Shown: positions 311 through 17,946 of the stretch, one piece after another | Layout of the letters: every line of letters starts with the position of its first letter | Position numbering within the stretch: the stretch's first letter is position 1 | IMG/VR virus record: IMGVR_UViG_3300048609_000030 | Length of the DNA: 20,000 nucleotides | Strand: one strand, 5' to 3' | Source of the DNA: an uncultured virus (IMG/VR IMGVR_UViG_3300048609_000030) | Lineage: Duplodnaviria; Heunggongvirae; Uroviricota; Caudoviricetes | Made by a program: the position numbers and the translations under genes | The notes under the pieces: model-generated | Databases searched by the model: none | The model's input: the letters and a program-made list of their open reading frames with translations, nothing else | What the model was told of the DNA's origin: nothing

Positions 311-973
311 ATGGCAGACCTGGGAGCTTACAACCTTGAACTTATGGATTCGGACAAGTCGGTAGACCTGTTCGGTCTTGACGAGTTCGGCAACCCGACT
401 GGTATGGACCAGATCTGGGGCGCAGTCATCGGTGGCGGCCTTGGTACGGGTACCGCGATTGCGGTTCGCGCACTCGCTGGTGAACCGGCTGCTGGCAAGT
501 TCGACTGGAAGAAATACTCCGAGGGTGTCGGCTTCCTGGTTGGCGGCGCTGCTAGCGGTCTGATGATGGCGTTCGAGGGTACTCGTGCAGCGGGCACCGC
601 AGGATTGGCAGTGGCCTTCCTGACCAACGGTCTCCGTCAGCTCGAAAGCCTTTTCAGTGAGAAGTCGACTGGGCTTGGTGCAGCGACCATCGAACGGCTG
701 AACGGTGTCGTGATGGAACGTTTGTCGCCTGGGACCAGGAACGTCGGCCTCGGCATCCCAAGTGCCCAGTACGTACCTGAAGCCTACGGCACCATCCCTG
801 GCGTTTACGGCACTCCTGTTGCCGGTACTCAGATCTCCACCGGTCAACCACCGGTCGATCTGATGGCGCCGCAAAACCTGCCGCAGAGCGCGTATCAGGT
901 CGAGCTGATGGGCGGTCCTGCTCTCAGCGGTCTGGGTATGCACTACGGCGCGACCCTCTTCGGCAGCGACTGA
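311..973 (+). CDS. Membrane-associated putative virion protein, Gly-rich, with multiple [LF]G motifs
   Basis: Strong RBS TAAGGAG upstream of ATG. Three hydrophobic Gly/Ala segments in the N-terminal half. Repeated DLG/LFG/GLG motifs. Lies directly upstream of the putative major capsid gene. Confidence 0.7.
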   Translation: MADLGAYNLELMDSDKSVDLFGLDEFGNPTGMDQIWGAVIGGGLGTGTAIAVRALAGEPAAGKFDWKKYSEGVGFLVGGAASGLMMAFEGTRAAGTAGLAVAFLTNGLRQLESLFSEKSTGLGAATIERLNGVVMERLSPGTRNVGLGIPSAQYVPEAYGTIPGVYGTPVAGTQISTGQPPVDLMAPQNLPQSAYQVELMGGPALSGLGMHYGATLFGSD

Positions 974-1065
974 CAGAAGAACAACTAACCGTCGGCCGTG
1001 AAGCCGACAAGTGAAAACAACCGGTCGGTGACGACCAGAAGAAAAACCTTTCAAGGAGGCTTATC

Positions 1066-1773
1066 ATGCGCGGAACAGTCGGTGTAGCACCTGGTACCAC
1101 TACCCTCACCCTGCCTGACGGCACTGCTGTTGCCCTCGCGGACTGGATCGACGACAAGCTGTATGGCACCGTCCAGTTTGCGAACGGTCAAGCCACGCCG
1201 ATCGAGGCGTTCTCGGCTGGCCGTAGCCAGGCGATCCCTGGTGGTACTCGCGTTCAGACGCGGGTTGACACTAACATCCCACGTAACGGCGACTCGGGTC
1301 TGCCGAAGGACTGGGAGATGTTGGTTTACGGCTGGGGCCTCAAGATGACCCGCGTCTGCCGTCCGCAGACTGGTCAGGCACAGCCCGTTCTCGGTGATGG
1401 CACTGGTGCGCTCTCCGACCCGCCGCGTCTTGCGACGCTGTTCGGTGTCGACCGTGTGGTCTTCATGAGCTACGAGTACAACGCGAAGATCTACACCTCG
1501 GGTGTCATGCAGGACTATCCGCAGGGACACGGCTACAGCGTGTTCAGCACGAACACCTCGTTCGAGCTGGCACAGAACGGCATCCCATCGCCGCGTGACC
1601 GGCTGGCGCTGGTGCTACCGGTCCACGAACGCGAGAATTTGGGCTTCAAGATGATCTTTCAGCCCGAGGCTGCACTGATCATCGCACAGCCCGCCAGCGA
1701 TGGTGGTGCGAACCTCACCTTCGCGGACATCAAGACCTATAAATACGGCCTCATCAAAAGGACAGTTGTGTAG
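1066..1773 (+). CDS. Putative major capsid protein, single jelly-roll type
   Basis: Very strong RBS AAGGAGG, strong C/G third-position bias and a terminator downstream indicate high expression. The 235-aa sequence is beta-strand-like with an LYGT…F…G…T..DTN…G.LP…M.V.G pattern and a terminal …YGLIKR strand, which I associate with jelly-roll capsid proteins. The fold call is inference. Confidence 0.55.
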   Translation: MRGTVGVAPGTTTLTLPDGTAVALADWIDDKLYGTVQFANGQATPIEAFSAGRSQAIPGGTRVQTRVDTNIPRNGDSGLPKDWEMLVYGWGLKMTRVCRPQTGQAQPVLGDGTGALSDPPRLATLFGVDRVVFMSYEYNAKIYTSGVMQDYPQGHGYSVFSTNTSFELAQNGIPSPRDRLALVLPVHERENLGFKMIFQPEAALIIAQPASDGGANLTFADIKTYKYGLIKRTVV

Positions 1774-1825
1774 CAATTTCGAGCAGATAGCTGCTGAGAT
1801 AGTACTACTGTCCGTCTGTATCCAC

Positions 1826-1870
1826 CTTGAAGGCCCAACACCAGAAATGGTGTTGGGCCTTCGAGTTTTT
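1826..1870 (+). terminator. Intrinsic terminator after the putative capsid operon
   Basis: Stem CTTGAAGGCCCAACACCA / TGGTGTTGGGCCTTCGAG (18 bp, one G-U) with a GAAA loop, followed by TTTTT. Confidence 0.85.
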
Positions 1871-1939
1871 CAGCAAAAACAAGTTGTAGAAGGTAAAAGA
1901 TTGACCGAAGAAGTGTTTGTGCCTTTCTGCCTCGTCCGC

Positions 1940-1969
1940 TTGTATCAACTTTCGATACGATGGTATATT
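1940..1969 (+). promoter_or_regulatory. Sigma70-like promoter, probably leaderless, for the methyltransferase
   Basis: TTGTAT-18-TATATT with an extended -10 TG. ATG at 1977 lies 7 nt downstream and has no SD. Confidence 0.5.
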
Positions 1970-1976
1970 GCCGCAA

Positions 1977-3515
1977 ATGCTTTGTCGTGCTTCTTTGCAA
2001 ACAAACGGCAACTTGAATCTTCCAGCTGACCTCAACGTAGATGACGCAGCAGCCCTTTCTGTACGTTTTCAACGTGCTGATCTCGACGTGGCTGTGGTGG
2101 CAACATTGTCACGGTGGCATCAACGTTGTTGGATGATGTTTCCTGGTGAAGCTCGTAGATTGTGTCAACCACCATGTCAGCTTGATGTTGATGTGACCAC
2201 GTTAAAAGATCTTGTGGCAACCGACACACGAGCACTTGTCCCGTGTAATGGGATCGTAAGGTTCAAGGCACGCATACGAGAACATGGTGGCTTGCTCGTA
2301 TCTGTACCACTGGTTTGGTATCGCGGAATGCAGCGCGCAGGATGGTCTCATGAAGTAGCAGTTCAGGTTACCTCTACAAAAGACACGATAAGATTTAAGC
2401 GTATGTTATCTGTACGTGCAGGCGGCAAGACGGTTGTTTTAGCGCTGCCACGTTCCACATGTTCAATGTTAGAAGCTAACCAAGAGGTTGAAGTTGAACT
2501 ACGTCCACATAAGGCCGCGGGCGCACCTGACCTAATGCAGTTGAAGCACTTTCCGATTAACGAATGGTGCACGTGGACTAAAGATAGACAAGAAGCGGAG
2601 TTGGCTATTCTTGTAGAGACATATCGTGCTGCAGGGTTTCCGTGGGATGTTGTACGTTCTAGAACAGAACGTGCACCGCTTGATGGTGTAAGAAGAAGTC
2701 GTATCAGCGTAGTCGGCGATCTTATCAGCAGTGTCGGTTACGCGGGACAACGCACTTGTCTTGCAATTCACGCACATCGTTTGAATGCTCGTTGCGGAAA
2801 ATCACCGTCAGTGGTTGAGGCATTTGAGAATGATCGACTACTACGACACGCGTTACGTTTTCAACTTGATCGCGGGAATCCAGTAGTACCACATCGTCTG
2901 TTGCGTGCACTGTCTGCACTAACGCACAGTCCGCTTAACTTTCCACCTACGTTGGCGCGTTGGCTGGTTGATCTATACGCCCCAGAAAACGGCATCGTTT
3001 TTGATCCGTGCTCAGGATACGGTGGCCGTTTACTCGGGTCTCTTGCTAGTGTAAAAAGCGTCACGTATGTCGGTGCGGACATCGAACCAGCTAGTGTCAG
3101 TGCAAATATCAGGTTGGCTGCGTTTTTAGGTGCTGCACATCGTGTAATACAAGAAGAGCGCGCAATTGAGACTTCTTGTGCTTGGCCTAAAGCAGACCTC
3201 GCTCTTGTGGGTCCGCCATACTACAATCGCGAGAACTACGGTGAAGCTTCGTACAAGGCTTTAACTAACTATCCAACTTATGATGTGTGGATCGAACAGT
3301 TCGTTTCACTTCTTGTTGTGCGTACATTGGAGGCAGCACCTGTAGCTGTATTTAATGTGGCAGCTATACGAGACAAAACTGTCATCAGAGATTTACCTGC
3401 TGATCTGATTCGGACAGCACAACAGCTCGGCATAAAAATAGAACGGATTCTGGAATGGAAAACGGCTAGGTTTAACAGCGCACGGACCGAAAAGCTTATC
3501 GTATTGACACGATAG
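1977..3515 (+). CDS. Amino (N4-C/N6-A) DNA methyltransferase-like protein with N-terminal AbrB-like repeats
   Basis: Motif I VFDPCSGYGGRLLG, YVGADI, and motif IV-like GPPYYNRENY. The ORF is open from 1917, but ATG 1977 is the preferred start given the promoter. Confidence 0.8.
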   Translation: MLCRASLQTNGNLNLPADLNVDDAAALSVRFQRADLDVAVVATLSRWHQRCWMMFPGEARRLCQPPCQLDVDVTTLKDLVATDTRALVPCNGIVRFKARIREHGGLLVSVPLVWYRGMQRAGWSHEVAVQVTSTKDTIRFKRMLSVRAGGKTVVLALPRSTCSMLEANQEVEVELRPHKAAGAPDLMQLKHFPINEWCTWTKDRQEAELAILVETYRAAGFPWDVVRSRTERAPLDGVRRSRISVVGDLISSVGYAGQRTCLAIHAHRLNARCGKSPSVVEAFENDRLLRHALRFQLDRGNPVVPHRLLRALSALTHSPLNFPPTLARWLVDLYAPENGIVFDPCSGYGGRLLGSLASVKSVTYVGADIEPASVSANIRLAAFLGAAHRVIQEERAIETSCAWPKADLALVGPPYYNRENYGEASYKALTNYPTYDVWIEQFVSLLVVRTLEAAPVAVFNVAAIRDKTVIRDLPADLIRTAQQLGIKIERILEWKTARFNSARTEKLIVLTR

Positions 3516-3587
3516 GTGTTCAAGTAGCGCTACAAGTACGGCCTCAAAACATACAAATAAAGGAAGGATAATAGCGGGTATTTTCAG

Positions 3588-3617
3588 TTGACTTTCTAGG
3601 TTCAGGTTGTGTATCTT
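3588..3617 (+). promoter_or_regulatory. Sigma70-like promoter for the LAGLIDADG gene (leaderless)
   Basis: TTGACT-18-TATCTT, with ATG 6 nt downstream. Confidence 0.5.
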
Positions 3618-3623
3618 GGTTAA

Positions 3624-4607
3624 ATGCAGCTTGATGACTTTCCCTACATCGCTGGCTATTTTGATGCTGAAGGTTGTGTTGGCCTTGCTTTTAGCACTGC
3701 TTGGTCTTGCTACGTGCAGTTCAAACAAACACAGCCCCAGGTCATTGCATGGTTGCTTCAACAATTCGACGGCAACACTTGGATCGAAGAACCTGAAGTT
3801 GGTCGACGACTTCTTCGTCTCAGATTCTGTTCGTTTGCTGAAACAACAAGATTTTTGCGTGCTATTGAACCGTTCTGCAAAGAGAAACATGAGCAAGTAG
3901 TAAAGGTACTAGAACAGTATCGACCAGACAGTACTACGAATTGGCGTCTCAAACGGGAATTGGAAGATTTAAAGAAAGCTGTAAGTAGGCCGCTTATTCT
4001 GGAGAAACACCTAGCGGTTGCTGTCCACGATCCGAATCGTCTTTGTTCGGTAGTAGGGTGTACCAAGAAATCTTTCGCGCGTGGACGATGCTCGGTACAC
4101 TACACTGCTGCACGTCTTAAAGGAGAGTTTACACCTCGAAAAAGACAAGAAGGCGTACCGTTTGTGTATGACGTCGTGCCGACAGATGACGACCGCCGTT
4201 ACTTAGCGGGATATTTTGACGGTGATGGTTGTGTATTGGTACACCGTGAGAAATACGGTTGGGGCATCAAAGTGCATTTTGGACAAACACAACTGCACGC
4301 GATCAAGTTAATGCACACAATCTACCACGGGTCATTGTCGGAACGTCGTGTCAAACCTGGCTGCAAACCTGTTTTCGATCTGCAAATTGTACAACGTGAG
4401 GCTGCTCTTGCCTTTCTACGTGACGTACAACCATATACTAAAGAGAAGCGCGATCAAATTGATATCGCCCTTGCTCAATATGATCCACGTGCTTCAAAAG
4501 AGACAGGGGTATTACTACAACAAACACTGACGGCGATGAAGAAACGTGAATACACAAAAAACGATCTTACTACCCTTGTCAACCGTGTTGTCCGAAACAG
4601 GGCGTAG
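3624..4607 (+). CDS. Free-standing double-motif LAGLIDADG homing endonuclease with a central Zn finger
   Basis: Motifs YIAGYFDAEGCV and YLAGYFDGDGCV, each followed by F.QTQ and K.EQ/K.DQ. The linker contains CSVVGC-x9-CSVHY. Confidence 0.9.
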   Translation: MQLDDFPYIAGYFDAEGCVGLAFSTAWSCYVQFKQTQPQVIAWLLQQFDGNTWIEEPEVGRRLLRLRFCSFAETTRFLRAIEPFCKEKHEQVVKVLEQYRPDSTTNWRLKRELEDLKKAVSRPLILEKHLAVAVHDPNRLCSVVGCTKKSFARGRCSVHYTAARLKGEFTPRKRQEGVPFVYDVVPTDDDRRYLAGYFDGDGCVLVHREKYGWGIKVHFGQTQLHAIKLMHTIYHGSLSERRVKPGCKPVFDLQIVQREAALAFLRDVQPYTKEKRDQIDIALAQYDPRASKETGVLLQQTLTAMKKREYTKNDLTTLVNRVVRNRA

Positions 4608-4623
4608 ACGATAGGAGGTACAG

Positions 4624-4827
4624 GTGCTGAAAGTACAAAAACTGTGTACGTATATGAAAGCTAGAGCTGCCTACGAAGGTGTTGTTTGGAAGCTTACTAA
4701 CAACTTCATACAACGCAACTTTGATGTTGGTATTCGTACCTTCTTTGGTGTGCAAATTGATAATGCGGGCAATCTTCTCGAAGATACGCAACAACCGGAG
4801 TTTTTTAGACAATATCACACGAATTGA
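4624..4827 (+). CDS. Small hypothetical protein
   Basis: RBS AGGAGGT upstream of GTG. The stop overlaps the next start (TTGATG). Confidence 0.5.
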   Translation: MLKVQKLCTYMKARAAYEGVVWKLTNNFIQRNFDVGIRTFFGVQIDNAGNLLEDTQQPEFFRQYHTN

Positions 4828-5381
4828 TGATCTCTTTACGGTACTTTGTCTGGACTCGCTATGGTACCGAAGCCGGTGAGCCAATCGAAGAGATACTAAG
4901 GCGCAAAGAAGCCGAACGCGTCGCCAACAACGGCATCTTCCTCTGGGGTATCGGTAATGCTCTCGGTCCTTCCATCCAAGCCCTCAAAAAGCGTGTAGCC
5001 GACCCCTGCGTCGTGTTCAGTCCCATAAAGACACCTCCACGCGCGATTGACGTACGGCCCTCCAAGGTCGTTTCCTGGACAACAGGAGAGCTAATCGACG
5101 GTACTGCCTACAGGCTGCCTGTCCACTCGATTGTCACAAGCCGCGAGAAACGTGCCCACTACGCGCTTGTCTGTTTCAGCACACAAAAGCTGTGTTTTGA
5201 AGCCGCAACTGAGACCGTCGAGTTCGGAACACTTCGTAATCTTGTCTCGGGGCGACCTTTGGGTAGGCAACAAGTCACAGCCGTAGTTGAACGCTGTATG
5301 ACGTCATGTGGCGACACTTACGCCTATCCCGCAACGATTGTTAGCCTGTACCCGCCCTACTACGTCAAGTTGACATCGTGA
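4827..5381 (+). CDS. Hypothetical protein (WTRYGTEAGE…RKEAER…FLWGIG motif)
   Basis: ORF of about 185 aa, translationally coupled to the upstream ORF, with a conserved-looking N-terminus. Function unknown. Confidence 0.7.
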   Translation: MISLRYFVWTRYGTEAGEPIEEILRRKEAERVANNGIFLWGIGNALGPSIQALKKRVADPCVVFSPIKTPPRAIDVRPSKVVSWTTGELIDGTAYRLPVHSIVTSREKRAHYALVCFSTQKLCFEAATETVEFGTLRNLVSGRPLGRQQVTAVVERCMTSCGDTYAYPATIVSLYPPYYVKLTS

Positions 5382-5547
5382 AGCGGTGTTTTGCCAACAG
5401 GGTGCGCATCCGCATCGCGGCGTCCATTAGCTCGCCCAACTCGCCACCCGCTCTTGCACGCAGCCTCTTCACATCGGGCGACTCCGGCCCGCTTGTGTTG
5501 AGAGCGTCCACAAACTCGCCAAGTCGCTTTTGCTCCTTCTCGTTCAT
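5365..5547 (-). CDS. Small helical hypothetical protein
   Basis: MNEKEQKRLGEFVDAL…, 60 aa from the internal ATG at 5547. Divergent from the 5663 ORF. Confidence 0.5.
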   Translation of the reverse strand: MNEKEQKRLGEFVDALNTSGPESPDVKRLRARAGGELGELMDAAMRMRTLLAKHRFTMST

Positions 5548-5662
5548 ACACGTATGACGTTTGGGGAATTGACAAGTGGACACTCTTTTGAGTTTGTCCT
5601 GCGATATTCGCGTGTTAGATGTTGTTAGAATATCCACTTCTGTGTATTCGTCATACGGTTGT

Positions 5663-5860
5663 ATGATCTCCAAAGCTCAGATCGAAGCACAAGTCCTTCG
5701 GGCGCAACTGAAGCTGATCGAACCAAGAGCTACGGTACGCCTAAAAGCAAATGGCTGGGACGTCTATGCGCCGCCACTTCGTGCAGCGCGCTCGCGGGCC
5801 CTCCTTCGCGCGGTGGGCTTGGAGTGGTGTGGATCCTGGTGCTACAAAAGCGGCAAATGA
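5663..5860 (+). CDS. Small basic hypothetical protein
   Basis: MISKAQIEAQVLRAQLKLIEPRA…, from an internal ATG of the 5576..5860 ORF. Confidence 0.5.
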   Translation: MISKAQIEAQVLRAQLKLIEPRATVRLKANGWDVYAPPLRAARSRALLRAVGLEWCGSWCYKSGK

Positions 5861-5899
5861 GGCTTGTCGTTTTTGGCAGCTGCTAAACACTGAGGTTAA

Positions 5900-6235
5900 G
5901 TGGCGACGTTGGATGTGGCGAACCTGGGACCGAGCCTCACTGGCGTCGGTGCGTACGTCCACGTCTACCAGAAGCTAGATCAGCGAGTCCGATACAGTCC
6001 ACGGATAAAAGTCTATCCAGGTAACCCAGGCGCAGGCGACGCAACCACGATCGCGATTCCACACGATGCCGAGCAAGAGCCGTATGTGACAGGCAGCGTC
6101 ACAGTGTCGCGCGCCGTGCTGCGAAAGGCTCTGCACTTCGCCGATCTGAATCGCGACGTGCTGACACGATACTGGGCGAATCCTGACATGGGCACAGACG
6201 AGCTGCTCGGTGAGCTGGTGACTCAGGTCGAATAA
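5900..6235 (+). CDS. DUF4160-like protein (paralog 1)
   Basis: RBS GAGGT before GTG. Pattern ANL.P..TG…PRIKV…F..LN…L..YW, clearly paralogous to 16294..16626. Confidence 0.65.
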   Translation: MATLDVANLGPSLTGVGAYVHVYQKLDQRVRYSPRIKVYPGNPGAGDATTIAIPHDAEQEPYVTGSVTVSRAVLRKALHFADLNRDVLTRYWANPDMGTDELLGELVTQVE

Positions 6236-6316
6236 TCAAAGAAGATTCAACGGTTAGCCCAAGCTAGAATATCGTTGTGGAAGGCGCGTCCAAGCTTGCG
6301 TATGATGTATGATCGC

Positions 6317-6784
6317 ATGAGCAAGCTCAGCCTGATTTTTGTTGCACTTCTGGGTTGTGATTGGCGTCCTGAAGAGCAACTTGTAGCCGCTCCACAGCAC
6401 GTAGATCGTGCAGTAGAAACAATCACAGAAGTGTTTGAAGCGGCGCACGGTACTCTTCCGCCTCTGACAAACGACGTTTTTTGGGTTGACGCACCGTGTA
6501 TGCGGCACGACGACAAATGCTGGACAGGTCTTTATTTTGAGGACGGACGGGATATTTGGCTTGGCACATTCAGTTCTGTCAGCATGTCTTCGTTGTCACA
6601 CGAAATGGTTCACTACTGGCTTGATGTAACACTTGACGACGTAGATGGTAACCATTCTCGTGTAGATTGGTGGTCGTTGGTAGAAGTTGCCGATGATCGT
6701 GTTTGGTTTTGGGAGAAGTGCTATGTAGTCACTTCATGGCGCGAGGGTATGCCAGACGAATGTTTGAACGAGCTAGGTATATGA
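6317..6784 (+). CDS. Putative lipoprotein zincin metallopeptidase
   Basis: From ATG 6317: MSKLSLIFVALLGC (lipobox-like signal), then HEMVH (HExxH) and a downstream His (DGNH). Confidence 0.65.
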   Translation: MSKLSLIFVALLGCDWRPEEQLVAAPQHVDRAVETITEVFEAAHGTLPPLTNDVFWVDAPCMRHDDKCWTGLYFEDGRDIWLGTFSSVSMSSLSHEMVHYWLDVTLDDVDGNHSRVDWWSLVEVADDRVWFWEKCYVVTSWREGMPDECLNELGI

Positions 6785-6796
6785 TAAACTGCTTTC

Positions 6797-7393
6797 ATGT
6801 CTACTGAGTACTGGAATCAACGCAACGAAGTCTTCGTCAAGACCTACCAAAAACTGAACGACCTCCCCGCTGATGGCCTTGCGGGCGAACAAACCTTTAC
6901 CGCACTCGACGGTCGTTGCTGGCCACTCAGGAACCTACCTGACGGGCGCGAGTGTTTCATCACCAACCCGTTCAAGGCAGGTGTCCACGACGGCGTTGAC
7001 GTCTTTTGGCGTTGGCAAGACGGTGACCAGCTCATCGACGGCTACTGGACCAAGTTCGGTGACGGCCGAGTTTGGTATCCCTATGGAACGCGGGCTGTCG
7101 TCGCGTGTGACGGCGTTGTACGCCGTAGCGAGGCCATTACTACAGGCTGGCTGGTAACCGTCGAGCACGCCAACGGAGACGTGACAGGCTACTTCCATGG
7201 CGTCAAACAGACGGCGCTAGTGAAGCCTGGCAACAATGTCGGGATGGGAACGCCAGTGTTCTATTGTGGGTGGGACTTGCGACAGCCGTTGTCTGAGGAT
7301 AACGTCGTACACGTGCACTTCAGCGTGCAGCGGGACGGTGCTTTCATCGACCCTGCAGCGTGGTTGAAGTATGCAGCGCACAACATCATATGA
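6797..7393 (+). CDS. M23-family peptidoglycan endopeptidase with an N-terminal PG-binding-like domain (putative endolysin)
   Basis: HDGVD (HxxxD), TGYFHG and HVHF (HxH) motifs. The N-terminal VKTYQKLNDLPADGLAGEQT matches the PG_binding_1 pattern. Confidence 0.85.
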   Translation: MSTEYWNQRNEVFVKTYQKLNDLPADGLAGEQTFTALDGRCWPLRNLPDGRECFITNPFKAGVHDGVDVFWRWQDGDQLIDGYWTKFGDGRVWYPYGTRAVVACDGVVRRSEAITTGWLVTVEHANGDVTGYFHGVKQTALVKPGNNVGMGTPVFYCGWDLRQPLSEDNVVHVHFSVQRDGAFIDPAAWLKYAAHNII

Positions 7394-7414: not shown

Positions 7415-7902
7415 CTACCTGGAATCACTGGGTGCGGCAACCACAATTAAGAACCCTTGAAAACAGATCTCCACACGTGTGTTGGGAGCTATACCCGCTG
7501 TTATCAGGTTGTCGACTGTGACCTGAAAGCCTTCTGACCTACTCAACACGTAAGGCTCTGCCCACTCCCACGTCTGTTCTGATGTACCTTTGGTCATCAG
7601 CTCAATGAGTATTGCGTTCTTGGTCAGGTTTTCGTTCTTCGAGAAGTCGAAGATACGAAGTCGCGTTGCGCGTTGAAGCGCATCAGTAGGCTGTACAGCA
7701 ATTAACGCGAGGTTGGCGTCGAGACCTGTAACGCGTGGGATCACACGGTGGATCTCGAACGGCTTGTCCGAGTTGTGTAGGAACGTTGCTTCGGGGAACT
7801 GAATGCCGATTGCGCCGGCAGCTACAATCAGTTCACCCGGCATTGAAAAGGGACGCGGAACGAAATCTCTCTTCCTGCAAACCGTGCTGGTAGACGACCC
7901 AT
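7415..7902 (-). CDS. Putative small single jelly-roll capsid protein with a -1 frameshift at 7846-7852
   Basis: RBS AAGGAG 7 nt before ATG 7902 (MGRLPARFAGREISFRVPF). This joins the long frame (SMPGELIV…DKPFEIHRV…LRIFD…EPYVL…FQVTVDN…VEICFQGFL) after a -1 shift at C CCT TTT, giving about 162 aa. Beta-sandwich pattern. Confidence 0.6.
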
Positions 7903-8076
7903 GGTTGTTCTCCTTTGCCCAACGTTTGATCTTGATGTGTGGGCTAGAAACCAACCTAGCACGAAGAGATCGTTACTACGATCCAATTTCAGACGTAACG
8001 TATTGATCGCACTTGCGATCACCCCAATCTTGTTGACATTCATTTGCTGATCGATGCTGTGATCAGTTAGATTGGA

Positions 8077-9270: not shown

Positions 9271-9627
9271 ATGTGGAACCACAGCGGATTCGGTTACTCA
9301 ACTACTGACGTCAATGGCAAGCAAGTAATCGTTGGCGGTACTGCCGACGAGACAGCGGCCATCAAAGCGTTGCAGCAAGCCATCAAGGTGGCCCAGACAG
9401 GAGCGCTTAGTGAGGGCGATGTTGCAATCTTCAACAAGCATACTGGCTTGAGCTGGGCCGGCGTAGAAATCACAGGTAACATCACGCAGGCGATCACGTT
9501 GGCCTTGCAAGGAAAGGCTTCCACGCCGTGGTACAAGGATTGGAAGATCCTTGTTCCCATCGCGCTTGGTGGCGTTGTAGTCGTCGGTGGCGGCGTCTAC
9601 GCGGCTCGGACACGTCGCGCACAGTAA
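9271..9627 (+). CDS. C-terminally anchored membrane protein with a degenerate PG-binding-like domain
   Basis: RBS GAGGT, leader MWNHSGFG, AIKALQQAI, and a PWYKDWKILVPIALGG… TM segment followed by RTRR. Confidence 0.7.
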   Translation: MWNHSGFGYSTTDVNGKQVIVGGTADETAAIKALQQAIKVAQTGALSEGDVAIFNKHTGLSWAGVEITGNITQAITLALQGKASTPWYKDWKILVPIALGGVVVVGGGVYAARTRRAQ

Positions 9628-9638
9628 GGAGGCCTTCA

Positions 9639-10253
9639 ATGGGCCAGCTCAACGCGTTCCCTTGGGACTCGATTTCGTCGATGACCCAGTACGCACAGGC
9701 GGCGGTCGAAGCCGTCAAGGTGCTTCAAGGCTACCTGAAGGTGCCTGCTACCGGCGTTGCCGACGAAGCAACGGTCACGGCAACCAACAAGACGCTCGGG
9801 ACCAACTACGATGCCAACTACATCGTACAGAACGCCATACCGCTAGCCGAACAAGTCCGTCTCAAGGCCGAGACCGGAAGTCCGTCTGGGACAAGTTCTG
9901 GCAGTTCCGGCAGTGCAGCAGCGGCAGCTGCAGCTGCCCAAGCAGCTAGACGTAAGGAAGCGGTGAAAGTGCTACAGGGCCACTTGGGTGTGGTCGCCGA
10001 CGGCATCGTAGGACCGATAACGATGGCCGCGACCAACAAAATCCTCGGGACGCACTACACCGCCGCCTACATCACACAGTACGCCGTGCCGCTAACCGAT
10101 CAAGTCCTTCGTATAGGGCGACAAAGGCCGCCCTGGTACAAGAACTGGAAGATCCTTCTTCCCATCGGGTTGGGTAGCATCGTCATCATCGGCGCCAGTG
10201 TTTGGGCTGGTAAGGCCAGTGCACGCAAGAAGCTGGTAGCACCAACGCCATAA
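9639..10253 (+). CDS. Membrane-anchored protein with two tandem PG-binding-like repeats
   Basis: RBS TAAGGAGG before ATG 9639. Repeats EAVKVLQGYLKVPATGVADEAT / EAVKVLQGHLGVVADGIVGPIT, a Ser/Gly/Ala linker, then a PWYKNWKILLPIGLG TM segment and a basic tail. Confidence 0.75.
   Translation: MGQLNAFPWDSISSMTQYAQAAVEAVKVLQGYLKVPATGVADEATVTATNKTLGTNYDANYIVQNAIPLAEQVRLKAETGSPSGTSSGSSGSAAAAAAAAQAARRKEAVKVLQGHLGVVADGIVGPITMAATNKILGTHYTAAYITQYAVPLTDQVLRIGRQRPPWYKNWKILLPIGLGSIVIIGASVWAGKASARKKLVAPTP
9708..10109 (+). repeat. Intragenic tandem domain duplication (two units of about 51 aa)
   Basis: Units start at 9708 and 9957 and share EAVKVLQG…ATNK.LGT.Y.A.YI.Q.A.PL..QV. Confidence 0.85.
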
Positions 10254-10672
10254 TGCACACCATCGACACTACGACACTAGGAGTTGCTGGCACACCGGTT
10301 CAACTTGAAGGGTGGCTGTCCGACCTTCAGAAGATCGCCAGCAAAGCACCCACGTTGTTGAATCAAATCTCGCCAATTGTCGTAGCCGTCATCGAAGACC
10401 CTGCCCTTCCCGAGGTGTTAGTACGTCTTCGAGCGATTGTAGCAATGGAGCAGGCCATTGCTCGTAAGAAGACGACGTCGGCAGGGTTCGGTGCGTTCGG
10501 AGCTGATCCAGGTGTCAACCTCATCAAGGCAATCCCGTTTCTAGACGCGTATCTCTATCTACGTCAACATCCTTGGGTCGGGATCGCAGCAGGAGCAGGC
10601 GTTGTAGCAGCGCTGTTTGGAGCAGGCTTCGGTGTAGGCCGTTTGACCAAACGCTGCAAGAGTGGATCGTAG
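10253..10672 (+). CDS. C-terminally anchored membrane protein
   Basis: TAATG coupling to the upstream gene. TLG, LEG and GFGAFG motifs. TM segment PWVGIAAGAGVVAALFGAGFGVG followed by a basic tail. Confidence 0.7.
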   Translation: MHTIDTTTLGVAGTPVQLEGWLSDLQKIASKAPTLLNQISPIVVAVIEDPALPEVLVRLRAIVAMEQAIARKKTTSAGFGAFGADPGVNLIKAIPFLDAYLYLRQHPWVGIAAGAGVVAALFGAGFGVGRLTKRCKSGS

Positions 10673-10697: not shown

Positions 10698-11600
10698 ATG
10701 GCTGACCCGAAAAAAGACGTACTCAAGGCGTTGGCAATACTAGAGTCGACGTATCAAAACCTGCGCAAGGTTGCGCAGGCTCAGATATCGATTCTGGCAA
10801 AGAGTGGCGCTAGGTGTACCGAACTACGTGAGTACAACCTACTCATGATGTCAACGTACAACTCACAGGCGGCCTTCTTGGAGATTCTTAGATCTCAAGG
10901 CGTGACCGCACCAGAGTTGCCGCCCTTCCCGACGCTGTTTGCGATGCAGGGGTACTCGGGACAAGACGCTCTCAACATCGACTGCAACAAACTTCCGAAG
11001 TTTGTCGGTCCGACACACATTCGTGTCATCACAAGTGATTCGCAGTTGATGGTCTCTGAGGTTCCAGCATTCAAACAGTTCACAGTGCCTGGTCTTGGTC
11101 TCGTGTTTGAAATACTCGCGGTCGCGGGAATCGTTATCGCGGTCTATGGCGCGCATGCTTGGGTGGACACTGCAAAAGAGGCAACGAAGCAAAAGATCGC
11201 CGATCTTGAAAGCGTACATGAAAGGTCCGAGACAGCGAAAAAGATTGCTGAGCTGCGCAAAGAGTCTTTGGACCGCTGTTGGAATCGTATTGACTTTAGT
11301 GATCCAGCTTTGGTGAGTGCTTGTGCAACCAGTGTTGACAAAGCCATTCCAAGGCTTCCTGATGACTATTACAGCGATGGCAGACCCAAGTATACATCTG
11401 GTATCTGGGGGTCGTTGGGCACACTTGCAATCACTATCGCCGTCGTTGTTGGCGGCATCGCCATCTACAAGCGTGTCAAACGTCGTCGCAGCGGTGGAGA
11501 CGTCAACGTCAACATCGAGACGGATGATGACGATGACGAAGAGCCACCGCGTCTCAGACCTGCAGTCAGAACACACGGACGTGCTATTCGGAGGGCATGA
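10698..11600 (+). CDS. Two-TM membrane protein with an acidic/basic C-terminal tail
   Basis: GLG precedes TM1 (LVFEILAVAGIVIAVYGA). TM2 is followed by KRVKRRR and a poly-Asp run. Confidence 0.7.
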   Translation: MADPKKDVLKALAILESTYQNLRKVAQAQISILAKSGARCTELREYNLLMMSTYNSQAAFLEILRSQGVTAPELPPFPTLFAMQGYSGQDALNIDCNKLPKFVGPTHIRVITSDSQLMVSEVPAFKQFTVPGLGLVFEILAVAGIVIAVYGAHAWVDTAKEATKQKIADLESVHERSETAKKIAELRKESLDRCWNRIDFSDPALVSACATSVDKAIPRLPDDYYSDGRPKYTSGIWGSLGTLAITIAVVVGGIAIYKRVKRRRSGGDVNVNIETDDDDDEEPPRLRPAVRTHGRAIRRA

Positions 11601-12013
11601 TGCACTACAACACAAAAACCTGTCTCAAGATGGCACGTGATATCGAGCGTATTGCCAACGTCACAGCACACCTGGCCAGCGGCGAGGTCCATGCACCAGG
11701 TGCAGGCAAGCCGACAATTCGCGGCACTGTTTTGGGGCCTGACGACGGCGACGTGGTTTACGCGCTACGGTGCGTCACGCCACAAAAGAAGGGCTCTTTT
11801 GGACCAGGCACTTGTGGGGTGTACGAAATCACCCGCAACGGTCCTGGTGTTGCTGCAAAGGGGCTGAAGCCAAAGACTACCGTGGGCAACTTGTTCGGGC
11901 TCGGCGAGCAGTTGGCACGCGATGCGACCCGTCTGTGGGGCTGCATACCTGAACGCGTCAGCGGCTTCGAGGGTGCAAAGACGGGCCGCCGCGCAAAGAA
12001 AGGCAGACGCTAA
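11597..12013 (+). CDS. Basic hypothetical protein
   Basis: ATGA overlap with the upstream gene. LFGLG and GFEG motifs. C-terminal GRRAKKGRR. Confidence 0.7.
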   Translation: MMHYNTKTCLKMARDIERIANVTAHLASGEVHAPGAGKPTIRGTVLGPDDGDVVYALRCVTPQKKGSFGPGTCGVYEITRNGPGVAAKGLKPKTTVGNLFGLGEQLARDATRLWGCIPERVSGFEGAKTGRRAKKGRR

Positions 12014-12585
12014 TGCTGATTGCCAGCTATCTAGGCGTCACCGAACAGGCGTTAGCGCCCGAGCCCGAGCAACCCTCTGACGACGTGTCTCGCGGGTCTA
12101 CGACGATTGTTGCCCGTCGTGGCACGATCACGACCGCGACAGAAGATGCGGTGCGGACTACGGCCGAAAACCTCGTTGCGCGACGTGTGCCGTTGCCAGC
12201 ACCGATAGCTTTTGAGCCAGCTGTCAAGCCGAAGAAGAGTTACCCGATAGGCACCCTTTACTACTACATTCCAGAGACCGGTATGTATATGGTCTCGTTG
12301 CCGCTCAGCGCCAAATCACTGGAAGGCGCGTTTGGAGCGTTCGGGGAAGATGGTGTTACGAACCTGCCTCCTGAACCGACACCAGTAAAACCTGAACTAC
12401 CTGCGCAAGAAACGACAAAAGAGGTTGTGGAAAAGGCTAGTGGCATATCACCCGTGGTACTCATAGAACCTCCACAACCTTCGACACCTATGTGGAAGAA
12501 GTGGCAGTTCTGGGCGGCGGTTAGCGGTGGCGTGGTTGTGCTCGGAACCGGTGGCTATTTCATTCTTCGAGGAGCACGTCGATGA
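12013..12585 (+). CDS. Pro-rich C-terminally anchored membrane protein
   Basis: TAATG coupling. Leader MLIASYLG, an SYPIG mini-domain, LEGAFGAFG, then PMWKKWQFW + TM + RGARR. Confidence 0.7.
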   Translation: MLIASYLGVTEQALAPEPEQPSDDVSRGSTTIVARRGTITTATEDAVRTTAENLVARRVPLPAPIAFEPAVKPKKSYPIGTLYYYIPETGMYMVSLPLSAKSLEGAFGAFGEDGVTNLPPEPTPVKPELPAQETTKEVVEKASGISPVVLIEPPQPSTPMWKKWQFWAAVSGGVVVLGTGGYFILRGARR

Positions 12586-13877
12586 TTGTTGCACAATTTG
12601 GAGCACTTCCTTCCAGCCTAGTCAGACCCGAAAAACCCGGCGGGATTCAGGCAGCACGCCCCAATCGAATCCCTTCTGGGCCGCATGTTGCTGTAGGTCC
12701 ATTTACCTTTCCTGTGAACGTCAACGAGTATTCGTACAAAGCGTCATACAATAAACTTGTAAGTACTGCTGAGGGCCGCGATCTCATGCAGGACATCTTG
12801 CAAGAGGTAAATAGACTATCCAAAGATACGTTGCATGTTTACGGCACTGCCGTAGGAGAGATGGCTGGCGGAAAGTGTTCAGCAGAACATGCCACCACTT
12901 CTAACGGAGTTGCGTTCGTTCCGGCAGTGCCTCGTTGTAAAGACAGAAAAAAAGCTGACGGTCGAGTGTGGCATAGTATTAGAATTCCAGAGGATCACAT
13001 ATGGGATTATCGATATCTTACCGATGATCCAAAGCTCTTAGTTGACGGGCTTCACCAATTACCTGTTTACAGGTTTGAACATCCTGTGAAGCTTGAACCT
13101 TGGGGTGTGTACATCAGTATCAACGAGTATGGCAATTACAAATTTACCGTAAAGAAGGTTGTCAAGTATCCTAGTTGGCTTGCTAGCCTATGGAACTCGT
13201 TTTGGAATGGTCTCAAAGATCTGGTAGCCAAAATCATCGAGTTTTACGGTGATATCTTCGATATCCTCAAAGCTGCCGCATGCAGCATGGCGCAGCCATA
13301 TCTGACAGATCTGAATAAAATCTCGAACCAAAACTATGCAGGTATGGATCTGGTAGCTACTAACGCTAAGTTCTCTGCGATTGGCATTTCTCCAACACAA
13401 CTATCTTCACTAGCGGCCGGAGGTCTTGAAGTTCAGGCAGCAATGGCGATTGGCCAAGAAGTCGCTGCACGGTTCTGTAAACCGTCAGGCAGCGGCGGCG
13501 GCGGCGGTTTCCCTTGGAGCAGTTATCCCAAAGGCTCCGTTGCGCGACTCAACACTACGCGTAATGTTTGGTCTGTCTACGCACCAACCACCACAACTGG
13601 ACTGGGTGATGCGTATGCTTCAGGTGCAGGTCTGGGTGGTGATCCTGTGGAACCACCGGTTCCAGGCGGCACCACAAAAGTCGGGGAAGAACCAGCGACA
13701 GCACCCAAACCTACTGGTGATCCTGTCAAAGATGGCGGCACAGAAGTCGACAAGCCTATCTACAAAAGAGCATGGTTCTGGGCTTTGATCATTGGCGGTG
13801 GTGCAGCCACTGCGGGCGGGATCTATTGGTGGCGAAAGCGGAAAACACCTCCACAGCTCAAGTCAGCTTGGATGTGA
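12582..13877 (+). CDS. Large C-terminally anchored membrane protein
   Basis: ATGA overlap. Leader MIVAQFG, an amphipathic WLASLWNSFWNGLKDLV helix, poly-Gly, an SYPKG mini-domain, two GLG motifs, then PIYKRAWFW + TM + RKRK. Confidence 0.75.
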   Translation: MIVAQFGALPSSLVRPEKPGGIQAARPNRIPSGPHVAVGPFTFPVNVNEYSYKASYNKLVSTAEGRDLMQDILQEVNRLSKDTLHVYGTAVGEMAGGKCSAEHATTSNGVAFVPAVPRCKDRKKADGRVWHSIRIPEDHIWDYRYLTDDPKLLVDGLHQLPVYRFEHPVKLEPWGVYISINEYGNYKFTVKKVVKYPSWLASLWNSFWNGLKDLVAKIIEFYGDIFDILKAAACSMAQPYLTDLNKISNQNYAGMDLVATNAKFSAIGISPTQLSSLAAGGLEVQAAMAIGQEVAARFCKPSGSGGGGGFPWSSYPKGSVARLNTTRNVWSVYAPTTTTGLGDAYASGAGLGGDPVEPPVPGGTTKVGEEPATAPKPTGDPVKDGGTEVDKPIYKRAWFWALIIGGGAATAGGIYWWRKRKTPPQLKSAWM

Positions 13878-13889
13878 TACAGTGGAAAT

Positions 13890-14036: not shown

Positions 14037-14092
14037 AAGCACGGTGGAGTGAGGATGTGGTGAGGTGCTAACAACCATGGTGAGACTCCAAT

Positions 14093-14374: not shown

Positions 14375-14377
14375 CCT

Positions 14378-15466: not shown

Positions 15467-15534
15467 GTAACCTCTTGAAACATATAAAGTATTACATATT
15501 GAATAGTTGTACGCTATCTACGTCCGATACTATC

Positions 15535-15933
15535 ATGACAGTCGGCAAGTCGGAAGACTTCGTATCGCCACTCGTCTGTAAACATTGCGGTGGTCCGGTG
15601 GGAGCGTTGCGTCTGGCCGATCACTATCTCCACGACAACGCCACCGAGTGGTATGCCGGCAAGCAGATGGACCACGACGCAGAGGTGGCACTCGGTATTT
15701 GCCACTTCTGGGTTCGCAACGTCCAGCTTCTGGGTTACGGCGCACGGCCAAACATGTTCATTCCGCCTGGAACTGTCGGCGACATGGAGGTTATCGAAAC
15801 TACCATAGACGCGCATGTTCTACAGGCAAACTTCTATCCAGGCGGAGGAGGCCACGGCTCCGGCCTTGTGGTCTATCCCAAATGGCGGTATGAGGTGCTC
15901 GAAAAGCATGGTGGTGCCGCAAGACAAGTGTAG
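15535..15933 (+). CDS. Hypothetical protein with CxxC and His residues (possible Zn binding)
   Basis: From ATG 15535, after an AT-rich divergent spacer. Contains CKHCGG…H…DHDAE. Confidence 0.55.
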   Translation: MTVGKSEDFVSPLVCKHCGGPVGALRLADHYLHDNATEWYAGKQMDHDAEVALGICHFWVRNVQLLGYGARPNMFIPPGTVGDMEVIETTIDAHVLQANFYPGGGGHGSGLVVYPKWRYEVLEKHGGAARQV

Positions 15934-16288
15934 CGATCCGTACGCCGTTGATGTACGAGTGACAACGAACGGTGAATGCCTACGCCTGAGGCTAGAGGAC
16001 GGGCGCGAATTCTGCGTTCCATTCGCGTGGTACCGAGGCCTGCGGCTTGCACCACTGACTGCAAGGCGAAGAATGACCAAGTGGTCAGGCATCGGCGTTG
16101 AGTGGCCCGACATCAGCCGAGACTTGAGCGTCCGCGGCATGGTAACCGACTGTATCGATCACGGCGTCGAGCCGACGTATTGGCGTAAGCCGCAGCGGAG
16201 GACAGCAGGACGTCCAGCGCAGCCTCAGCGACGCGAGAGACGTCGAGCGAAGAAGTAGATGCTCGAAAAGCATGGTGGTACCGCCAGA
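15896..16288 (+). repeat. Direct repeat pair flanking the DUF2442 gene
   Basis: TGCTCGAAAAGCATGGTGGT (20 nt identical) at 15896-15915 and 16260-16279, extending to 29 nt with 2 mismatches. Confidence 0.9.
15908..16258 (+). CDS. DUF2442-family protein (putative antitoxin)
   Basis: AVDVRV…LRLRLEDGREFCVPFAWYRGL…GIGVEWPDISRDLSVRGM follows the DUF2442 pattern, with an Arg-rich tail. Start uncertain. Confidence 0.8.
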   Translation: MVVPQDKCSDPYAVDVRVTTNGECLRLRLEDGREFCVPFAWYRGLRLAPLTARRRMTKWSGIGVEWPDISRDLSVRGMVTDCIDHGVEPTYWRKPQRRTAGRPAQPQRRERRRAKK

Positions 16289-16293
16289 TAGGA

Positions 16294-16626
16294 ATGCAAA
16301 ACATGCTCGGAATGGCAAATCTACGACCGGAGCAAACTGGTGTCCCGGTCGTCCTGCACGCACTCAAAAACGTTGAACATCGAGCGCGTCATGCACCGAG
16401 GATCAAGGCGTTCCCTGGGCGACCGCACGCGGGAAACGCGACGATCATCTCGATCCCGACCCACGACGAGGATAGTGCCCAAGTGGTGGGCAGAGCGACG
16501 ATCCGTGGCACTGCATTGCAGCAGGCGCTCGAATTCGTTGATTTGAACTGGGAAGCGTTGCTGCTCTACTGGTATGAACTAGAGTTTGGCGAGGCCGAGT
16601 TGCGTGATCGATTGAAAGAAGTGTAA
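16294..16626 (+). CDS. DUF4160-like protein (paralog 2; start possibly 16312)
   Basis: MANLRPEQTGVP…HAPRIKA…FVDLNWEALLLYW. Adjacent to DUF2442, its usual partner. Confidence 0.65.
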   Translation: MQNMLGMANLRPEQTGVPVVLHALKNVEHRARHAPRIKAFPGRPHAGNATIISIPTHDEDSAQVVGRATIRGTALQQALEFVDLNWEALLLYWYELEFGEAELRDRLKEV

Positions 16627-16634
16627 TTCAGCAA

Positions 16635-16952
16635 CTACGCGGCTAATAGGCGGCACGCAGGTTCTTTGTGTAGTTGGCACAAACCAGAATAGTACACCTT
16701 GTCCTCAGCAAGGTGGTCCATACTTATTTCACGCGCTTGGTACGGATCGTTCGTGTGTTCCAGTTCGATCAAGGTACCGACCAACAACTGTGTTGGATCG
16801 AAGTCAGACGGTTTCCTACCTGCCGCTCTTCCACCTGGTATTGCCTCGTCGTAGCCCAACTGGTGGGCGCGACGAGAGACGTAGATCGCACCTCCGATGG
16901 TTGCGAGACCAACCGCACCCGCAGCTAGTAGTATGTAATTCTCTGTCCTCAT
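16635..16952 (-). CDS. DUF5661-like protein with an N-terminal TM segment
   Basis: TM YILLAAGAVGLATIGGAIYV, then QLG, then FDPTQLLVGTLIELEHT…AREISMDHLAED..YY. Confidence 0.7.
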   Translation of the reverse strand: MRTENYILLAAGAVGLATIGGAIYVSRRAHQLGYDEAIPGGRAAGRKPSDFDPTQLLVGTLIELEHTNDPYQAREISMDHLAEDKVYYSGLCQLHKEPACRLLAA

Positions 16953-16962
16953 ACCCAGTATC

Positions 16963-17193
16963 TTAGCCTTCTAGTTCTTGGTCCAACTCTGCTAGTGCCG
17001 CGGGCCTGCTTGGCGCCGCTGCTACAAACACGTTTCCGAGTTGGTCCCAGATCCACCACGTACCACCCGACACATCGACTAGCAAGGACTCAGCTTTTAC
17101 GCGTTTCTCTGCGCGGCGTACTGCCCACTTGTGCTGTTGGCAATAGGGGTAGGATTTCGTTTTCGTGCCGCACACTTTGCAGTAGTAGCTCAT
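16963..17193 (-). CDS. Small Zn-finger protein
   Basis: CKVC-x9-CQQH. It starts immediately after the thioredoxin stop codon. Confidence 0.6.
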   Translation of the reverse strand: MSYYCKVCGTKTKSYPYCQQHKWAVRRAEKRVKAESLLVDVSGGTWWIWDQLGNVFVAAAPSRPAALAELDQELEG

Positions 17194-17194
17194 G

Positions 17195-17512
17195 TTAACG
17201 TCCGTTCAAGTGGACGCGGTAAGCAACATCCATCAACGTCTTGATGCCGTGATCGTCGATCGCACCTTCTTCCTTCAACATACCAGGACCGTGGCGGGCC
17301 ACGATAGTCGTAGGAGTGGCTTCGACACCCCACCGATCAGCCAAGCTTTGTATCCGTTGATCCTCAGAAGCAGCGTCGTAGACGAGTACAGGTACACCAG
17401 CTTGGGCGTAAGGTGCGGCTACCCGTTGAAACCGCGGTAGGTACTCTTCACACGCAGGGCAGCCACTCATCAAAAACACAACGACTACGACTGGTGGTTG
17501 GGGCGAGTTCAT
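17195..17512 (-). CDS. Thioredoxin-like protein
   Basis: VVVFLMSGCPAC…LADRWGVEATPT (CxxC plus cis-Pro motif). Start at the internal ATG 17512. Confidence 0.85.
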   Translation of the reverse strand: MNSPQPPVVVVVFLMSGCPACEEYLPRFQRVAAPYAQAGVPVLVYDAASEDQRIQSLADRWGVEATPTTIVARHGPGMLKEEGAIDDHGIKTLMDVAYRVHLNGR

Positions 17513-17553
17513 GGTCTTGATGCTACAACGTTTTCTGCTATTGCGCCAAGTGG

Positions 17554-17946
17554 TTAGTTCTTGTGCCTTTGAAACAACAGCGTCGCAGTGAAAACGCCAA
17601 CAGCGGCCATTCCGAATCCGACGCCGGCAACCCACTGCCACGTTTTGATCTTGGGCGTTGCGTAAGCGCGAACAGCGTCGGCGGTTTTCTGATCCCAAAG
17701 CTGCACGATCTTCGTGTAGATCAAGGCCTGCTCAGCACTAGGCGTTTTGGCAGCTTTCAGGATCTCGCCAGCGCGCTTCAAGTCGCCCGCTTGGACAGCT
17801 CCGAAGACACATCCAGCGACTAGATCGAGGCGGTCTTCGCCAGTGTCCTTCACAAACTGTGTGATGTTGAGGCAGCGGGTCTCTGTGACCGGAATTTTGT
17901 CGCTTTCTTTAACGAGAGCACCAAAACCATAAGTTGCTGTCAGCAT
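17554..17946 (-). CDS. C-terminally anchored membrane protein
   Basis: RBS GAAAGGT, leader MLTATYGFG, then PKIKTWQW + TM + QRHKN. Confidence 0.7.
   Translation of the reverse strand: MLTATYGFGALVKESDKIPVTETRCLNITQFVKDTGEDRLDLVAGCVFGAVQAGDLKRAGEILKAAKTPSAEQALIYTKIVQLWDQKTADAVRAYATPKIKTWQWVAGVGFGMAAVGVFTATLLFQRHKN

Follow-up and report, generated by a model that had tools for sequence, protein, structure and literature searches.

The window considered here is the whole stretch of 20,000 nucleotides analysed from an uncultured virus (IMG/VR record IMGVR_UViG_3300048609_000030), and several of its proteins begin with a brief leader that ends in Leu-Gly or Phe-Gly ([LF]G). Comparison with relatives at the sequence level indicates that this [LF]G tag is real and is specific to C-terminally membrane-anchored proteins, plus the family of a Gly-rich protein encoded at 311-973. 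The motif, often in the form G-[LF]-G, would then be a short linear signal marking these two groups of proteins. Our leading and still tentative reading, on which doubt slightly outweighs confidence, is that it is a processing site cut after the Gly by a transglutaminase-fold enzyme conserved in the lineage. An earlier sequence-only reading of the window had proposed that six dissimilar proteins share such leaders and that the motif serves in cleavage or capsid docking; its observation is partly confirmed, and its interpretation partly supported, by the evidence below.

All six leaders are located where that reading had placed them. MADLG opens the Gly-rich protein of 220 amino acids (aa; 311-973, plus strand), which contains eight [LF]G copies and is encoded immediately 5' of a jelly-roll gene. 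The other five open C-terminally anchored proteins: MWNHSGFG (118 aa; 9271-9627, plus strand), MHTIDTTTLG (139 aa; 10253-10672, plus strand; internal GFGAFG before the anchor), MLIASYLG (190 aa; 12013-12585, plus strand; internal GAFGAFG followed by an acidic/Pro-rich linker and the anchor), MIVAQFG (431 aa; 12582-13877, plus strand; internal GLGD and GLGG before linker and anchor) and MLTATYGFG (130 aa; 17554-17946, minus strand). An untagged member of the same anchored class, with 204 aa and two PG_binding_1-like repeats (9639-10253, plus strand; MGQLNAF...), is a paralogue of the 9271-9627 protein, and a lineage-conserved 300-aa protein with two transmembrane (TM) segments (10698-11600, plus strand) is likewise untagged (MADPKKD) and carries GLG at its first segment, TM1. 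Shine-Dalgarno-like sites precede the starts at 311, 9271, 12582 and 17946, stop/start overlaps occur at 10253, 12013 and 12582, and a crude gene caller blind to residue identity chose the same six starts. With public gene calls of identical length for 12582, 17554-17946 and 9271, that is, for three of the six, wrong start codons were rejected as the source of the leaders, and all six starts are plausible on these sequence features.

Within the window, [LF]G ends by residue 10 in nine of the 36 called open reading frames (ORFs), compared with 3.05 expected from the background of their own interiors (nominal P 0.0018). Since the ten best of 3,800 possible [XY]Z motif classes in the same window also reach nominal P values of 0.0018 or lower, this enrichment was not accepted by itself, and at least three of the nine tags look like chance (5365 on the minus strand, 5900 and 16303), the latter two being paralogues whose LGs are out of register in their alignment. 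By eye, the tag was present in five of the seven window proteins whose last membrane segment lies near the C-terminus and in 4 of the 29 others (Fisher 0.006). The enrichment claimed by the sequence-only reading is thus unexceptional in the window alone, but it replicates in relatives with the motif definition fixed beforehand.

Relatives were found with a conserved 235-aa all-beta (jelly-roll-like) protein as marker (1066-1773, plus strand), a putative shell protein. A simple caller using codon usage and ribosome sites supplied the 879 ORFs of the replication set, which covered the window, three relatives that are complete or nearly so, and 13 further loci of 13-21 kb; loci L006, L014 and L016 were dropped as duplicates of the genomes G001, G003 and G004. 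The anchor classifier was crude, admitting some beta-rich false positives and missing the Gly-rich anchors of 12013 and 12582, the latter error working against the tag hypothesis. Outside the window, the tag was found in 30 of 113 C-terminally anchored proteins and in 64 of 730 others, with a Fisher P of 5e-7 that, like the other P values here, is an upper bound on the strength of the evidence because the proteins are related across genomes. The difference held when each protein's own interior composition served as control (33 observed and 16.8 expected among anchored proteins; 70 and 61.6 among others) and when BLAST families with a tag majority were counted instead of proteins (17 of 64 anchored, 44 of 510 others; p 1e-4). 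Of the 44 tagged anchored proteins, 17 have Gly and five have Gln at P3, two residues ahead of the motif's Gly.

The conservation that the sequence-only reading had left to be checked in homologues was found for 311, 9271, 12582, the 10253 family and several further ortholog families, but it is inconstant for the strict motif in 12013, and no full-length relative of 17554-17946 was found. All 16 viral loci have a homologue of 311 upstream of the jelly-roll gene, and the 15 relatives with a readable N-terminus (starts partly assigned by eye) have an [LF]G ending within 10 residues in nine cases and within 15 in 12, with none in three; the closest relative, L034, begins MSDLG. The sole homologue found for 9271 (P0128, 94% identity) reads MWNHHGLG, an F-to-L exchange within the motif. 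The leader MIVAQFG of 12582 is unchanged in P0002 (73% identity), and in P0003 (46%) the called ORF is longer and contains MVEPSQLG as a possible start. Relatives of 12013 (L002, L003, L016) begin MLFTQHNG, MLYAQLNG or MLTTQYNGTNGFGG, and retain M-L-x-x-Q-x-x-G but often have N instead of L or F before the Gly. The homologue search with 17554-17946 returned only the protein itself, and its N-terminus resembles MLQTQYYGNGFGGFG/AL (L003) and MLTTQYNGTNGFGGQLG/AL (L016), both found as relatives of 12013 (here and below, a slash marks a cut or the point where one is proposed).

The 10253 family provided the broadest comparison. An exhaustive HMMER search yielded 120 non-self representatives, mutually no more than 50% identical and with independent public gene calls, of which 28 have an [LF]G ending within 10 residues (13.4 expected) and 52 within 15 (18.9 expected); position 2 is L or I in 50 of them. 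The family site is [LF]-G-(G/D), immediately before a conserved V-x-E-D-L...K-A-P block, and is often preceded by Gln (QLGG, QLGD, QLFG, QFGA). In the window protein, the position of this site is taken by L-E-G at residues 18-20, so that the TLG at residues 8-10, from which the sequence-only reading had defined this leader, is not the family motif. Long members of the family (P0009, P0010, P0012, P0018, P0022, P0023, P0025, P0039, P0043, P0069, P0082 and P0113) carry, before the conserved domain, one or more N-terminal modules of the form QP(A/T)SWP..W.TE...DLQ.RL.RLPFYAP.G[LF]G, each ending in G[LF]G, in the manner of a small polyprotein.

Whole ortholog families in the relatives show the same arrangement: the leader varies (3-17 residues), the LG after it does not, and a conserved block follows; the 311 family was grouped with them. 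In the family M(x)2-15-LG/[LIMF][IV]P.WQ[FY], L and G are invariant in nine of nine sequences, and in M..LG/IIL.PYG the pattern holds in five of five. A signal at the nucleotide level was rejected, as the Leu and Gly codons of the former vary synonymously.

The internal copies listed by the sequence-only reading are also present, namely GFGAFG in 10253, LEGAFGAFG in 12013, GLGD and GLGG in 12582, GLG at TM1 of 10698, QLG following the TM segment of 16952, and the copies in 311 counted above. Their placement at domain boundaries is borne out near membrane anchors, but several other [LF]G fall inside Gly-rich membrane segments. In each of 10253, 12013 and 12582, a joint of the G[LF]G type lies between the protein body and the anchor linker. 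Counted over the interiors of anchored proteins, with the first 12 and last 45 residues left out, G[LF]G occurs 47 times compared with 12.0 +/- 3.4 in shuffles (about fourfold), and the control G[AVIM]G is not enriched (19 compared with 27.4). GGG is enriched as well (42 compared with 11.8), and Gly-rich linkers are therefore part of the story. The 78 G[LF]G sites in ectodomains are unevenly placed (chi-square p 2.6e-7): their density per 100 aa is highest, at 1.20, over residues 1-15, drops to 0.25 in the middle of the protein and is 0.56 over the last 60 residues ahead of the anchor.

The protease that the sequence-only reading had suggested looking for on the contig has a candidate in all related viral loci, but none of a tag-protease type was found in the window, where the two peptidase-like genes look lysis-related. 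The candidate, 230-280 aa long, has a Transglut_core domain (Pfam E 1.6e-6 in G001) and, N-terminally, a membrane segment; it was detected by tblastn in 16 of 16 related viral loci, 3.4-6.6 kb upstream of the jelly-roll gene, and also in contig L035 of a metagenome-assembled genome (MAG). Its expected place by synteny is before base 1 of the window. Residues C159, H192 and D211 are invariant in the 14 aligned sequences, all from relatives, which gives a Cys-His-Asp triad in a transglutaminase core fold in the relatives only. A Leu-Gly straight after the membrane segment and a basic stretch is also invariant (14 of 14), in a region that is otherwise variable.

The enzyme model (predicted confidence, pLDDT, 79.6) has as its best Foldseek matches a putative cysteine protease (3isr, E 1.3e-4), S. 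pyogenes TglA and LapG proteases (E ~1e-3). Further fold matches are transglutaminases (4xz7, TG2) and PNGase, with weaker ones to the phage pseudomurein isopeptidases PeiP and PeiW; a sequence search of the PDB gave a chance-level match only. When the G001 catalytic domain (14-row alignment, residues 55-245) was co-folded with the N-terminal 45 residues of a tagged family (9 rows), the score was 0.01, the mark being 0.32, which speaks neither for nor against binding. A trypsin-like peptidase of G001 was rejected as the lineage enzyme, as it was not found in G003, G004 or the window. The sole peptidase-like gene of the window that matched a family is endolysin-like, with Peptidase_M23 and PG_binding_1 domains (6797-7393, plus strand); we do not put it forward as the tag protease, and it had no tblastn match in the 16 related loci. 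The gene before it (6302-6784, plus strand) encodes a putative lipoprotein (LLGC) with a metallopeptidase-like HEMVH motif, has no family match and is not conserved in relatives. Both of these genes look lysis-related.

In the mechanism that we put first, the membrane-anchored Cys-His-Asp enzyme, the gene for which would lie just outside the window, would cut after the Gly of the motif. At an N-terminus the cut would strip a leader of 4-15 residues, and at the G-[LF]-G joints beside anchors, the enzyme's own included, it would free ectodomains during maturation of the particle. Papain-like proteases usually select a hydrophobic residue at P2, and many viral ones cut after Gly. Cleavage is favoured because leaders vary freely ahead of an invariant LG, because the sites concentrate at protein starts and beside anchors, and because the enzyme carries an invariant LG of its own. 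In this scheme, we infer that the enzyme acts as a protease, that the motif is what it recognises and that a cut occurs at all. The fuller proposal, in which G-[LF]-G/ sites form a maturation code read by a virion membrane-anchored cysteine protease of transglutaminase fold, in tailless, membrane-containing jelly-roll viruses of 77-221 kb that form an undescribed lineage and whose likely hosts include Gemmatimonadota, is somewhat more doubtful than cleavage as such.

Several observations weigh against cleavage. The strict tag is present in only about a quarter of anchored proteins, and the relatedness of the proteins counted limits what the P values can carry. The enzyme itself was not found in the window, either by tblastn or with a three-sequence hidden Markov model run over six-frame ORFs. 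Its fold family spans cross-linking enzymes and cell-wall isopeptidases besides proteases, and since this family holds PeiP and PeiW, and a sequence homologue of the enzyme in phage SSIP-1 (gp34) is annotated as structural, a role as a virion cell-wall enzyme is equally natural. SSIP-1 has the tag in 2 of 57 annotated proteins, neither of them C-terminally anchored. In a related element of a Gemmatimonadota MAG, which may be a remnant, the MSDLG leader is kept and the enzyme gene was not detectable. Families that share the peptide VGVAPGTTT, described below, also have a variable leader and a conserved block, without [LF]G.

In ranking, cleavage is followed by a live rival, rather unlikely in itself yet as tenable as cleavage, in which the tag is an uncleaved docking or sorting motif and the hydrophobic start (M-[LIM]-x...) and G-[LF]-G bind a common partner. 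Such a partner would be the shell protein with the jelly roll, the Gly-rich protein of 311 or an assembly chaperone, and docking would bring the anchored proteins into the membrane of the virus or link that membrane with the shell. The motif's restriction to one protein class, its conservation and its placement fit docking equally well, and L, I or M stands at position 2 in 43 of 117 anchored proteins compared with 129 of 762 others. The peptide VGVAPGTTT, common to the jelly-roll protein and 11 small proteins, implies that N-terminal peptides are reused as modules in the lineage, and SSIP-1, with an enzyme homologue and without tags of this kind on anchored proteins, implies that enzyme and tag need not be linked. 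However, docking leaves unexplained the invariant LG after the enzyme's own anchor, the free length of the leader before LG and the conserved block after it.

A still less probable explanation, which we regard as improbable, is that the motif has no dedicated function and reflects Gly-rich composition, the origin of the anchored proteins in a small number of modular ancestors and a motif chosen post hoc. The unexceptional standing of [LF]G among the 3,800 classes in the window is in keeping with this, as are the enrichment of GGG, the whole-genome tag rates in relatives, which are at background (14 of 160, 12 of 138 and 14 of 140), and the relatives that 12013 and 12582 share in G004, which mean that the six proteins are not fully independent. 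Against it, the pre-specified motif replicates in other genomes under composition and family-level controls and in the 120 divergent representatives of the 10253 family, the fourfold excess of G[LF]G is not shared by G[AVIM]G, and LG is invariant in families where neighbouring residues and codons vary. Last comes the very improbable reading that the enzyme cross-links, with Q-[LF]-G leaders (e.g., MIVAQFG) as acyl donors that become isopeptide-bonded to Lys of shell or membrane proteins: Gln tags do serve as transglutaminase substrates, Gln precedes [LF]G in many 10253-family leaders and true transglutaminases are among the fold matches, but Gln is rare at P3 of tagged anchored proteins, four of the six window leaders have none and the best fold matches are proteases.

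The sequence-only reading had drawn an analogy to the maturation proteases of adenovirus, poxvirus and African swine fever virus (ASFV). Site-specific maturation proteolysis is a hallmark of eukaryotic jelly-roll DNA viruses, and the sites of ASFV and poxvirus end in Gly with a hydrophobic residue upstream. In the systems of adenovirus AVP, ASFV pS273R and poxvirus I7L, all from DNA viruses of the jelly-roll lineage, many structural precursors bear short sites of this kind, and the system proposed here would resemble them in being Gly-directed with a hydrophobic residue ahead of the Gly. The analogy fails for the type of protease: AVP, pS273R and I7L are Ulp1/adenain-like enzymes (clan CE), whereas the candidate here has a transglutaminase/papain-like fold and is absent from the window, and Pfam named no clan CE protease among 30 window ORFs or 126 ORFs of G001. 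Set beside the clan CE consensus, GG/X or (M/I/L)XGX/G, the motifs [LF]-G and G-[LF]-G resemble it only in the Gly at P1 and a nearby hydrophobic residue. Unlike in these eukaryotic viruses, the host here is bacterial, the substrates are mostly membrane-anchored and the cleavage is one that we infer. AVP sites include IVGL/G and M-R-G-G (PMC4246237).

The enzyme homologue in SSIP-1, gp34, has a C-terminal TM segment and matches the lineage enzyme by blastp at 1e-13 to 3e-8. SSIP-1 is described as a tailless membrane-containing phage and is said to encode two major capsid protein types (PMC6356626). Its genome of 43.8 kb contrasts with the 77-221 kb of the window lineage, and no SSIP-1 protein other than gp34 matched a window protein. 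Bacterial LapG-like transglutaminase-like cysteine proteinases share the Cys-His-Asp triad and the fold with the candidate (Foldseek E ~1e-3, identity 15-18%). LapG is periplasmic and calcium-dependent, cuts at a di-alanine motif and frees a surface protein by one cut near its anchoring module; given that cut, the G[LF]G joints beside anchors would allow a release of the LapG kind.

Short cleaved N-terminal leaders are also known from type IV prepilins, from double-glycine bacteriocin leaders, and from the Prp-cleaved leaders of ribosomal protein L27 and of the phage 80alpha capsid and scaffold proteins. The leaders described here resemble these in being very short, common to several proteins and, in several cases, in ending in Gly, and each of those systems relies on one dedicated peptidase. 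A type IV prepilin (class III) signal was rejected, as no hydrophobic segment follows the Gly in any of the six window proteins and Glu is at +5 in only two; in all six, the Gly is followed by polar or mixed residues, e.g., G/AYNLELMDSDKS and G/VTEQALAPE. The double-glycine leader/C39 system was rejected on leader length (4-15 residues here, 15-30 there) and on [LF]G in place of GG. A Prp-type leader was rejected, as Pfam named no Prp family in the window or G001 ORFs scanned; the same scan of 30 and 126 ORFs named no prepilin peptidase or C39 peptidase either. Altogether, the system is not of the adenovirus/ASFV/poxvirus protease type, nor of the prepilin, double-glycine or Prp type.

If the maturation code is real, it would be a functional convergence with the Gly-directed maturation of adenoviruses, ASFV and poxviruses. 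We know of no description of site-specific maturation proteolysis for the membrane-containing bacterial counterparts of these viruses, and literature available mostly at abstract level held no report on the tags of this lineage and none on a transglutaminase-fold virion or maturation protease in phages. Should the tags be cut, the lineage would offer a bacterial, genetically simple model of Gly-directed virion maturation and a new pair of protease and recognition site; should they serve in docking, they would reveal by what means a large virus with an internal membrane chooses its membrane proteins. In either case, the tag is a practical marker for virion membrane proteins in an almost wholly unannotated virus group.

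The window appears to belong to a lineage of bacterial viruses of 77-221 kb that are tailless, have a jelly-roll shell protein and contain a membrane. Neither the DNA of the window nor the proteins of 1066-1773 and 12582-13877 had a match in the INPHARED phage collection, and public protein records identical to window proteins sit on a contig of 77,433 bases. Relatives of 1066-1773 with 57-75% identity are encoded on 16 IMG/VR contigs of 39-221 kb, and of five relatives queried, three are rated complete at ~85 kb and have direct terminal repeats. The AlphaFold (AF2) model of 1066-1773 is all-beta and weak (pLDDT 54). Single jelly-roll capsid proteins match its structure best, at Z 5-6.7, which is below the level of a safe match (satellite panicum mosaic virus 6.7, SPV1 6.6, P23-77 VP17 5.2, HCIV-1 5.0), and these fold matches to a predicted structure are suggestive only of a jelly-roll shell protein. 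In the ESM Atlas, 1066-1773 matched unnamed viral clusters only, with PRD1 P2/P3-like families at 0.75-0.77, under the usable level, and 12582-13877 had no usable match.

For the complete 85.6-kb relative G001, Pfam was run on the 126 ORFs of at least 70 aa and PHROGs on 43 of those. The scans named DNA polymerase A, an SNF2 helicase, ThyX, dUTPase, an integrase and two tailspike-like proteins. They named no terminase, portal or HK97 capsid family, an absence from profile libraries that is weak evidence. As to a packaging ATPase of the FtsK/HerA type, the general Pfam scan of G001, which was not a search aimed at that type, named only AAA_24 and SNF2 ATPases. Beside the jelly-roll gene lie clusters encoding small proteins that end in a single membrane segment and a basic tail, and such a membrane-protein cluster beside a shell gene, without terminase, portal or HK97 capsid genes, is the arrangement of tailless internal-membrane viruses with single jelly-roll shell proteins (SSIP-1, Sphaerolipoviridae, Portogloboviridae-like). 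In one G001 ORF (L018:11864-12916), a pilin-like gene carried by a phage, residues 185-211 form a prokaryotic N-terminal methylation (pilin-type) motif; the called start of this ORF is probably too far upstream.

The peptide VGVAPGTTT(M/L)xL at the N-terminus of the jelly-roll protein (window 1066-1110) recurs near the start of 11 small proteins in the relatives, encoded by ORFs in L001-L015 (e.g., L008:4457, L013:347, L012:2451), and ten of the 11 are classed as C-terminally anchored. None was found in the window. From this shared sequence, the small proteins may mimic the N-terminal arm of the shell protein.

The Gemmatimonadota element, of ~31 kb (L034:4400-16699 plus L038:914-20000), lies in the MAG chromosome, abuts ordinary host metabolic genes and holds homologues of 311, 1066, 7415 and 8077. 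It points to at least one host phylum and may be a remnant or degraded provirus.

The G+C content along the window is 45-59% and its genes are mostly unannotated. Annotation by Pfam and PHROGs is confined to the M23 peptidase with its peptidoglycan-binding domain, the protein that has two PG_binding_1 repeats, a weak match to a DNA methylase, a LAGLIDADG endonuclease, DUF2442, a thioredoxin-like protein and an HNH-AP2 endonuclease. The homologue of 7415-7954 usually lies ~0.1-3 kb past the end of the jelly-roll gene (~7.8 kb in L015) and is ~5.6 kb away in the window, where the interval 1917-7393, containing the methylase-like gene, the LAGLIDADG endonuclease, small ORFs, the HExxH lipoprotein and the M23 endolysin-like gene, looks like a variable or mobile insert. 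Two paralogous ORFs of 107-111 aa (5900-6235 and 16303-16626; 42% identity), one of them directly after the DUF2442 gene (15815-16258), may be part of a small toxin-antitoxin-like pair present twice. Genes for four tRNAs (Met, Tyr, Lys and Gln) occupy 18338-19062 and are followed by the HNH-AP2 endonuclease gene, the group spanning 18338-19701. The thioredoxin-like protein (17195-17698, minus strand) is kept in nine of the 16 loci L001-L016, near the membrane-protein cluster, and may be relevant to the many Cys-containing small virion proteins.

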